NCBI RefSeq assembly: GCF_003334405.1
Contig: NZ_QOWM01000079.1
Length of the DNA stretch: 206 bases
From: Escherichia coli
Lineage (GTDB): Bacteria; Pseudomonadota; Gammaproteobacteria; Enterobacterales; Enterobacteriaceae
Reading direction: 5' to 3' (one strand)
Below the pieces are notes generated by a model. It saw only the letters and a program-made list of their open reading frames with translations, made no database searches and was not told where the DNA came from. Positions within the stretch are counted from its first letter, which is position 1, and each line of letters opens with the position of its first letter. The position numbers and the translations under genes were made by a program. This document shows positions 1 to 206 of this stretch, in pieces.

Positions 1-26
1 CGGCGTGAACGCCTTATCCGGCCTAC
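1..26 (+). repeat. Y-type REP, 5'-truncated by window edge (CGGCGTGAACGCCTTATCCGGCCTAC)
   Basis: Identical to the 3' 26 nt of the full Y REP at 86-119 except for A8 versus G101 in the loop; ends in the characteristic GGCCTAC tail. Confidence 0.8.
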
Positions 27-43
27 GAATGGCGCAAGAATCT

Positions 44-72
44 GTAGGCCTGATAAGCGTAGCGCATCAGGC
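44..72 (-). repeat. Z-type REP (Z2-like), inverted relative to the Y REPs
   Basis: Reverse complement of 44-72 is GCCTGATGCGCTACGCTTATCAGGCCTAC. Imperfect palindrome: 48-54 GCCTGAT pairs with 66-72 ATCAGGC; inner GCG 57-59 pairs with CGC 63-65; AA bulge at 55-56; loop TAG 60-62. Same GCCTAC tail as the Y REP but read on the opposite strand. Confidence 0.75.
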
Positions 73-85
73 ATTTGCCACCACT

Positions 86-119
86 GCCGGATGCGGCGTG
101 GACGCCTTATCCGGCCTAC
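86..119 (+). repeat. Y-type REP, complete (GCCGGATGCGGCGTGGACGCCTTATCCGGCCTAC)
   Basis: Imperfect palindrome: 86-92 GCCGGAT pairs with 109-115 ATCCGGC; 95-98 GGCG pairs with 103-106 CGCC; loop TGGA 99-102; internal mismatch GC/TT at 93-94 versus 107-108. Matches the E. coli REP consensus as I recall it. Confidence 0.85.
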
Positions 120-136
120 GAGTGGCGCGAGAATCT

Positions 137-165
137 GTAGGCCTGATAAGCGTAGCGCATCAGGC
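137..165 (-). repeat. Z-type REP (Z2-like), inverted, second copy
   Basis: Identical in sequence to 44-72 and offset by exactly 93 bp. Confidence 0.75.
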
Positions 166-178
166 ATTTGTCACCATT

Positions 179-206
179 GCCGGATGCGGCGTGAACGCCT
201 TATCCG
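179..206 (+). repeat. Y-type REP, 3'-truncated by window edge (GCCGGATGCGGCGTGAACGCCTTATCCG)
   Basis: Begins with GCCGGATGCGGCGTG exactly as at 86-100 and continues with the AACGCCTTATCCG seen at 8-20; runs off the window end. Confidence 0.8.

Follow-up and report, generated by a model that had tools for sequence, protein, structure and literature searches.

A Y-type REP of the Escherichia coli array REP23: a predicted RayT substrate in an array targeted by IS1397

The DNA analyzed here is a 206-nt stretch of Escherichia coli (the window, throughout) that is 100% identical to positions 339858-340063 of E. coli K-12 MG1655 and also to many other strains. Its segment 86-119 is the third Y-type palindromic unit, or repetitive extragenic palindrome (REP), of the K-12 array between yahG (b0321) and yahI (b0323), for which the name REP23 is already in the literature. 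The segment is predicted to be competent as a substrate of RayT (TnpA_REP), a REP-associated tyrosine transposase (RAYT), its loop belongs to a type targeted by the insertion sequence (IS) IS1397, and RayT-mediated strand transfer may act on the array; this combined reading is regarded as very probable. A first-pass annotation, made from the letters alone, had proposed the segment as a probable substrate for a RAYT and for IS insertion specific to bacterial interspersed mosaic elements (BIMEs). That interpretation is supported overall, with refinements concerning the roles of the two strands, the restriction to single-stranded DNA (ssDNA), the BIME class, and the IS621 targets in the Z units. 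The annotation named two findings that would speak against it, a genome without a RAYT of matching REP type and a locus invariant across strains; both were looked for, and neither was observed. The Y-type identity and the relations to RayT, IS1397, and IS621 are already published and textbook knowledge; only the IS1397 insertions recorded here in natural strains and the complete range of alleles at this locus are mildly new.

Identity of the Y unit and IS1397 insertion at REP23

The segment, GCCGGATGCGGCGTGGACGCCTTATCCGGCCTAC, is a 34-nt imperfect palindrome ending in CTAC at 116-119, which reads GTAG on the minus strand; its stem carries a two-base bulge, AA opposite GC, which is left unpaired in the fold. 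As ssDNA, the plus strand folds at -11.0 kcal/mol (z = -3.3, with 1 of 200 shuffles equal) and the minus strand at -12.1 kcal/mol (z = -3.8, with 0 of 200 equal). Together with the preceding T, it agrees with a published Y-REP sequence at 33 of 35 positions, and both mismatches lie in the loop. Its length falls within the 30-40 nt of REP palindromes, it has the GTAG foot and the two-base bulge, and it follows the Y consensus rather than that of Z1 or Z2; it is also extragenic, between yahG and yahI, and of high copy number, with the caveat that a disputed open reading frame (ORF), yahH, overlies it. Compared with the Y-type unit in the nomenclature of Gilson, Bachellier, and Hofnung, it is the same in its 34-nt palindrome, CTAC/GTAG foot, AA:GC bulge, extragenic position, and alternation with Z units, and it differs by one A-to-G change in the loop (GTGGAC), which is also the sole difference from the other three Y units of the array. 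The coordinates 86-119 chosen in the first pass prove to be the exact unit boundaries. A chance palindrome was rejected as the primary reading. Searched against 5,426 complete E. coli genomes, the 206-nt window sequence has matches in 5,425, with a median of 19 places in each, and a 78-nt query with one Y REP finds at least 40 places, REP copies amounting to hundreds per genome.

The reference for IS1397 was its insertion in CFT073, located by synteny between nlpE and yaeF, with the ends read directly. A 78-nt query reconstructed from the CFT073 empty site was tried for split sites and abandoned, as it was swamped by the hundreds of REP copies in each genome. A chimeric query, joining the yahG 3' end to both possible leading ends of IS1397, was then searched in the 5,426 complete genomes. 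Five genomes stood on top at 67% coverage, each with an intact 1,432-bp IS1397 between yahG and yahI, and in all five the element lies in the loop of a REP23 Y unit, with 4-bp target duplications of GTGA or GAAC. In NZ_OZ039653 and NZ_CP051659, GCGGCGTGA precedes the element and GTGAACGCC follows it; NZ_CM135961 has the insertion at the position seen in NZ_OZ039653 in a different sequence background. In NZ_OZ547143, GCGGCGTGAAC precedes the element and GAACGCC follows it, and NZ_CP027550 repeats this position in the second Y of a two-unit array. The five insertions are at least four independent events, and the Y-unit loops of REP23 are a real IS1397 target, in keeping with the annotation, which stated that IS1397-family elements insert into BIME palindromic units and suggested a survey of related strains for IS interruptions. 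The rules on which unit types IS1397 accepts were drawn from secondary citations, together with the junction data of this analysis.

The copies with an insertion have the loop GTGAAC, and the strains concerned have 1-2 units; the strict ortholog of unit 3 is never among the insertion sites, and no IS1397 was seen in the GTGGAC copy at 86-119 among the five genomes with an insertion. The Y loop at the CFT073 yaeF-nlpE site is identical, with a duplication of GTT. Full-length IS1397, a member of the IS3 family, is present in 1,708 of the 5,426 genomes.

The orientation of the element is a separate observation. All five REP23 insertions point the same way: the transposase is antisense to yahG, and the left end adjoins the GCCGGATGCGGCG half. 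The CFT073 insertion at yaeF-nlpE is turned the other way with respect to its Y unit. A single orientation might reflect strand- or transcription-biased targeting, but four events are too few for the shared orientation to reach significance (two-sided p about 0.125). An intact IS1397 is absent from K-12, which retains just a 65-nt fragment; it lies in an unannotated region, at 3618884-3618948 of NZ_CP009273 (BW25113), matches the IS1397 left end at 97%, and is also found in many other genomes that lack IS1397. This fragment could be a solo end or what remains of a former copy.

Strains differ at the locus. It was surveyed with a query of 300 nt from the yahG 3' end joined to 300 nt from the yahI 5' end, and the flanks lie at most 800 bp apart in 4,981 of 5,049 genomes with the locus. 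Among an evenly spaced sample of 57 genomes, the spacer was about 95 nt in 7, 142-153 nt in 25, 246 nt in 1, 329 nt in 3, 421-432 nt in 18, and 514 nt in 3. Representatives read directly carried 0, 1, 2, 3, 4, and 5 Y+Z1 units, single-unit alleles thus existing in other strains; the yahG-yahI locus is strongly polymorphic in whole 93-nt units. The zero-unit allele of NZ_CP159698 (strain Z142-2; L013 351-445) has a 95-nt spacer in which the REP is absent and another small palindrome, CCCTTCTCCCTTCTGGGGAGAGGGG, is present; it shares with the REP-bearing alleles only the last ~35 nt before yahI.

The tail, formed by the other 68 genomes, includes an allele whose yahG-yahI spacer holds a 516-aa gene and is free of REPs. 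IS insertions were considered for two chromosomal tail records that were opened, which instead showed a deletion into yahI and the 516-aa-gene allele; a third row of the tail is a plasmid match to yahG only. The IS1397 insertions came to light through the chimeric query alone. In NZ_CP032237 (strain ECCWS199), yahG has an internal stop and the yahI 5' end is deleted next to the array, which borders the deletion; the operon is decaying there. An example of the 516-aa ORF is in NZ_CP080172 (strain PK8566; L004 4312-6000); one record labels it a xanthine permease, and the protein gave no match in Pfam or NCBIfam. The 1.7-kb segment of this allele is found, at 99% identity or above, in about 46 chromosomes and about 107 plasmid records, and the yah-like cluster therefore also travels on large plasmids. 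Absence, 1-5 units, interruption by IS1397, and gene replacement are all the documented REP polymorphisms, and REP23 brings them together in one spacer.

In NC_017634 (NRG 857C), at L018 374-407 and 560-593, and in the upstream unit of L009, GACA...TGTC replaces GGCG...CGCC in the inner stem of the Y unit. These paired changes keep the hairpin, which would reflect either selection on structure or the spreading of a Y subfamily by conversion.

RayT recognition and predicted cleavage

In K-12, rayT (b0228) lies at 247637-248134, ~92 kb from REP23, and its product is identical over all 165 residues to the crystallized TnpA_REP (PDB 4er8). BIMEs lie on either side of the gene, and three Y units in them differ from the window Y at 2-3 of 34 positions, their partners being long Z units. 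A host RAYT with a matching REP, which the annotation had suggested looking for, is therefore at hand, and its remark that the window itself holds no transposase gene is correct. Among the 5,426 complete genomes, 3,569 carry the gene, in agreement with the published frequency of 74/110 (two-thirds).

According to Ton-Hoang et al., TnpA_REP works on ssDNA only, and the 5' GTAG and the stem mismatch of the REP are needed for binding and activity. Cleavage takes place at C/T (here and below, a slash marks the cut) in the inverted copy (iREP), of which all three types are cleaved; the type II site is GGCC/TAC, and the type I site, TGCC/TGAT, occurs in Z units only. The enzyme also cuts linkers, which may lie to either side of the hairpin it binds and on either strand, and it catalyzes strand exchange in vitro. 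Messing et al. crystallized the enzyme with GTAGGACGGATAAGGCGTTTACGCCGCATCCG and described base-specific contacts to T11, C27, and G32 and an essential A12-A13/G26-C27 bulge, the loop being uncontacted. Apart from position 6 and loop positions 19-20, the minus strand of 86-119, GTAGGCCGGATAAGGCGTCCACGCCGCATCCGGC, is identical to the DNA in 4er8, so that T11, A12, A13, G26, C27, and G32 are all conserved in 86-119.

The features of the window on which this part of the argument depends are as follows.

86-119, minus strand: Y palindromic unit 3, with GTAGGCCGGATAAGGCGTCCACGCCGCATCCGGC as the predicted RayT recognition hairpin; the plus strand is the iREP
98-103: loop of the Y unit and IS1397 insertion zone, GTGGAC here and GTGAAC in the copies with an insertion
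113-119, plus strand: predicted RayT iREP type II site, GGCC/TAC, cut between 116 and 117 as expected from the Ton-Hoang consensus
137-165, plus strand: short-form Z (Z1) unit in REP orientation; its minus strand is an iREP
Within 137-165, minus strand: predicted RayT sites by motif, TGCC/TGAT cut between 163 and 162 and GGCC/TAC cut between 140 and 139

A REP with a 5' GTAG and a stem mismatch is thus present on the minus strand at 119-86. On the plus strand, the C/T site at 116/117 stands next to the Z1 REP at 137-165, and on the minus strand the two motifs TGCC/TGAT and GGCC/TAC occur in the Z1 iREPs; the cognate gene is flanked by REPs of the same type, namely the three Y units. Judged from these sequence features, the minus strand of 86-119 is a competent RayT recognition hairpin and the plus strand an iREP with a type II site. 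The proposal that the segment is a RayT substrate consequently holds for both strands, although in different roles: as written, on the plus strand, it is in the orientation of a cleavage target, and the minus strand is the one recognized. The more general statement that RAYTs recognize and cleave REP hairpins needs refining for E. coli TnpA_REP, whose cut falls in the inverted copy or in a linker and not in the bound hairpin.

The BIMEs of the REPtron, which flank rayT and correspond to substrates B268/B269 of Ton-Hoang et al. and to the DNA in PDB 4er8, have Y units 2-3/34 different from the one here, with identical GTAG, bulge, and contact bases and with CC/T motifs present; the Z partner, however, is the long Z2 there and the short Z1 in REP23. 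The subterminal hairpins of IS200/IS605 elements and the REPINs of Pseudomonas are likewise imperfect hairpins with a 5' guide-like tetranucleotide, handled as ssDNA by an HUH Y1 enzyme, and in this comparison inverted REP pairs are regarded as the mobile unit. TnpA_REP differs in being a monomer, in using two guide bases only (CT specificity), in its ability to cut either strand at a distance from where it binds, and in leaving its own gene unmobilized.

The following course of events is proposed. When the region becomes single-stranded, RayT would bind a GTAG-footed hairpin and cut 5' of T at CT sites in the inverted unit or the linker next to it, giving rise to a 5'-phosphotyrosine intermediate, from which strand transfer could insert, delete, or relocate a unit. 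The locus lies at 0.34 Mb on the clockwise replichore of K-12, where the plus strand is expected to be the lagging-strand template. The plus-strand GC skew of +0.044 over the 12-kb locus is consistent with a leading-strand sequence and hence with the lagging-strand template. On that template, the Z1 units would be the bound hairpins and the Y unit at 86-119 would be cut, while on the minus strand the roles would be swapped, with Y bound and Z1 cut. RayT events at REP23 must be rare.

Several points weigh against this reading. The demonstrations of RayT activity are all in vitro, with oligonucleotides or ssDNA circles as substrates, and the authors left the mechanism and frequency in vivo open; a 2026 preprint takes the same stance on RayT in vivo and reports REP325 to be stable on plasmids. 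The assays in the literature used near-identical sequences and not the copy at 86-119, the loop of which, GTGGAC in place of GTGAAC, has no protein contact in the crystal and yet is where IS1397 inserts. REP numbers show no clear difference between rayT+ and rayT- strains, and slippage or homologous recombination between the 93-nt repeats would explain the gain and loss of units equally well. The Z at rayT is Z2 and that at REP23 is Z1, so only the Y half matches the REP type that flanks rayT. Finally, REP23 is not among the eight REP regions with exonuclease protection in the mobilome preprint. An assignment of the array to REP31 or REP32 of that preprint was considered and is wrong, the array being REP23, and the exonuclease-protection signal is thus inapplicable to it.

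Architecture of the array and IS621 sites

The yahG-yahI spacer measures 421 bp in K-12, and the array takes up most of it. In the full locus, REP23 is a 3.9 x 93-nt tandem repeat with four Y and four short-Z (Z1) units, of which the window contains 2.2 copies. The Y unit alternates with a shorter palindrome, GTAGGCCTGATAAGCGTAGCGCATCAGGC, in opposite orientation, in the order Y, 17 nt, Z1, 13 nt, and the resulting units are direct repeats that are 95-100% identical. The remaining features of the window are given below.

1-26, plus strand: 3' part of Y unit 2, its start cut by the window, in iREP orientation with a CTAC end (full unit at L001 5851-5884 in MG1655)
After base 23, plus strand: predicted RayT cut in Y unit 2, from the motif GGCC/TAC
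27-43: 17-nt tail-to-tail linker GAATGGCGCAAGAATCT between the CTAC and GTAG feet, with no IHF consensus
42-43: possible linker cleavage site CT, following the C/T rule
44-72, plus strand: short-form Z (Z1) unit in REP orientation, with 5' GTAG
73-85: 13-nt head-to-head linker ATTTGCCACCACT, which aligns with the 'l' linker of the Rfam naRNA4 model
109-119, plus strand: IS621 near-match ATCCGGCCTAC, with one mismatch at position 4
120-136: 17-nt tail-to-tail linker GAGTGGCGCGAGAATCT, from the sequence
166-178: 13-nt head-to-head linker ATTTGTCACCATT, from the sequence
179-206, plus strand: 5' part of Y unit 4, its end cut by the window, from the sequence and the repeat
47-116, minus strand: match to Rfam RF02564 (naRNA4) covering Y, linker, and Z, at 72.4 bits against a gathering score of 59.5
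1-206, plus strand: interior of the yahH (b0322) ORF, an in-frame read-through of the 93-nt repeat (L001 5770-6090)

The Z1 unit at 44-72 agrees, in reverse complement, with the published short Z over all 29 unit bases, and its hairpin folds at -8.6 kcal/mol (z = -3.4). As quoted in the literature, BIME-1 consists of a single copy of Y+Z1 whose long linker binds IHF, and BIME-2 of Y+Z2 in tandem. REP23 shares with BIME-2 the tandem arrangement (3.9 x 93 nt) and the short linkers (17 and 13 nt), but its Z has 29 nt, whereas Z2, as in the REPtron and REP325, has 36 nt. The unit types fit BIME-1; nevertheless, there are four tandem copies in K-12 and no long IHF linker, and the IHF consensus WATCAANNNNTTR was found in none of the REP23 linkers, even with one mismatch allowed. 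Z1 units in tandem with short linkers are what is described for the multi-copy chimera of BIME-1 and BIME-2, and REP23 is accordingly, by sequence, an 'atypical BIME', neither BIME-1 nor BIME-2.

The 36-nt long Z is named Z2 in Nunvar 2010, in the text of Ton-Hoang et al., and in Qian 2015 and the 2026 preprint, and since the long form is Z2 in three sources, the 29-nt form in REP23 is Z1. For the long Z beside rayT, Ton-Hoang et al. and Nunvar et al. use the label z2, but Figure 1 of Messing et al. has z1; BIME classification from these papers should therefore go by sequence and not by label.

The Z units are also where the array meets IS621, a bridge-RNA recombinase with the natural 11-nt target ATCAGGCCTAC, a CT core, and the alternative ATCGGGCCTAC. 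The exact ATCAGGCCTAC occurs on the minus strand in both Z1 units of the window, at 44-54 and 137-147. The target overlaps the palindrome foot, including the CT core, and its position 4, which is A in the natural sequence and G in the one that the bridge RNA encodes, is C in the Y unit. The Y unit at 86-119 is thus not an IS621 target in this comparison, and since position 4 is C, insertion into it is not predicted with confidence. The K-12 array offers four exact IS621 sites besides its four IS1397 loops.

Alternative readings and significance

The alternative that survives best acts at the level of RNA, and its chances are put at about even. It holds that the REP hairpins, transcribed together with yahG, protect the upstream mRNA from 3' exonucleases and partly attenuate transcription into yahI in a Rho-dependent manner, that targeting by the transposase and by IS elements is incidental, and that changes in unit number arise by slippage or recombination. 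The genes on either side of the array share a strand and belong to the proposed yahDEFGIJ operon, and the sense RNA of REP23 folds at -100.3 kcal/mol (z = -5.55 against shuffles). Neither an intrinsic terminator nor a sense-strand promoter was found in the yahG-yahI spacer, the former absence being expected for REPs. In the 2026 preprint, REP325 is a stabilizer and a partial Rho-dependent terminator, and REPs between tandem genes favor the upstream gene. The first Y unit starts 13 nt past the yahG stop (L001 5744-5758); a cited study puts at 15 nt the farthest distance at which a REP stalls ribosomes and lowers expression of the gene before it, and the unit falls within this range for REP-mediated translational control. 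The 93-nt units, as direct repeats of 95-100% identity, are moreover ideal substrates for slippage. The same proposal is, however, compatible with the DNA being a substrate of RayT and IS1397, and it accounts for the maintenance of the array and not for its origin; the many strains with 0 or 1 unit also make a strong regulatory need for four units unlikely. More probably than transposition, an effect of the array on the yahDEFG(H)IJ transcript is its everyday function.

A role mainly as a topological element, in which duplex DNA of the array would be bound by DNA gyrase or DNA polymerase I, appears unlikely. The literature, as far as it is quoted in the citing papers, has BIME-2 and atypical BIMEs binding gyrase strongly and REPs binding DNA polymerase I, and REP23 is a multi-unit atypical BIME; the gyrase work in those citations nonetheless concerned BIME-2, that is, Y+Z2, and REP23 is Y+Z1.

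A protein-coding reading is less plausible still. Here, the segment would lie inside yahH, which would encode a real repeat protein, with the palindromes as a by-product. Support comes from the annotation of yahH (b0322) in RefSeq, from the fact that 93 nt make 31 codons and so keep one frame open along the array, and from Neuhaus et al. 2016, who observed ribosome footprints on a 465-nt version in enterohemorrhagic E. coli (56 reads per kilobase per million mapped reads, coverage 0.61). The encoded 'protein', however, is VNALSGLRMAQESVGLISVAHQAFVTIAGCG repeated 3.4 times; its length shifts or the ORF vanishes with copy number, with no equivalent at 0-1 unit and with differently named 'hypothetical proteins' elsewhere. 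DNA of the REP family also occurs hundreds of times per genome at non-coding positions, and yahH was earlier withdrawn from annotation as REP-derived and has no peptides listed.

The most improbable of these alternatives makes the segment part of a gene for a small RNA (sRNA) like naRNA4, which would work with HU to bridge cruciforms and condense the chromosome. The full array gives three RF02564 matches above the gathering score (72.4-78 bits against 59.5), at L001 5812-5881, 5905-5974, and 5998-6067, all on the minus strand; those in the window are at 47-116 and 140-206, also on the minus strand. Qian et al. 2015 proposed a nucleoid role for REP325, which shares with REP23 the Y unit, the 13-nt 'l' linker, a tandem array between same-strand genes, and a score above the Rfam threshold. 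REP325, however, has 12 palindromic units and REP23 has 8, the Z hairpin of REP23 is 7 nt shorter than in the naRNA4 model, and the matches above threshold are antisense to the yahG-yahI operon, the sense strand reaching 52.7 bits, below the threshold. The nucleoid-condensing role of REP325 is itself contested in the 2026 preprint, from the same laboratory. The naRNA4 match reflects shared REP sequence and no distinct gene.

The sRNA gene and the protein gene were accordingly rejected as primary readings, the one on its antisense matches and below-threshold sense strand, the other on its copy-number-dependent ORF. Both the naRNA4 match and the yahH ORF are consequences of the repeat and not independent evidence for either gene, and automatic annotation would call three sRNA genes in REP23 where there are really REP units.

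The reading of 86-119 as a Y unit of REP23 that is a predicted RayT substrate with an IS1397-targeted loop has little significance beyond correct annotation. With 0-5 units at REP23 across thousands of genomes, and with a third of these genomes having lost rayT by two datable routes, the alleles could conceivably read out RayT activity in vivo, although we consider this doubtful. The series of alleles lends itself to an in vivo test of RayT function, which is still missing. If gain and loss of units were concentrated in rayT+ lineages, with junctions at CC/TAC or at linker CT, this would for the first time show in vivo the remodeling of BIMEs by a domesticated Y1 transposase.

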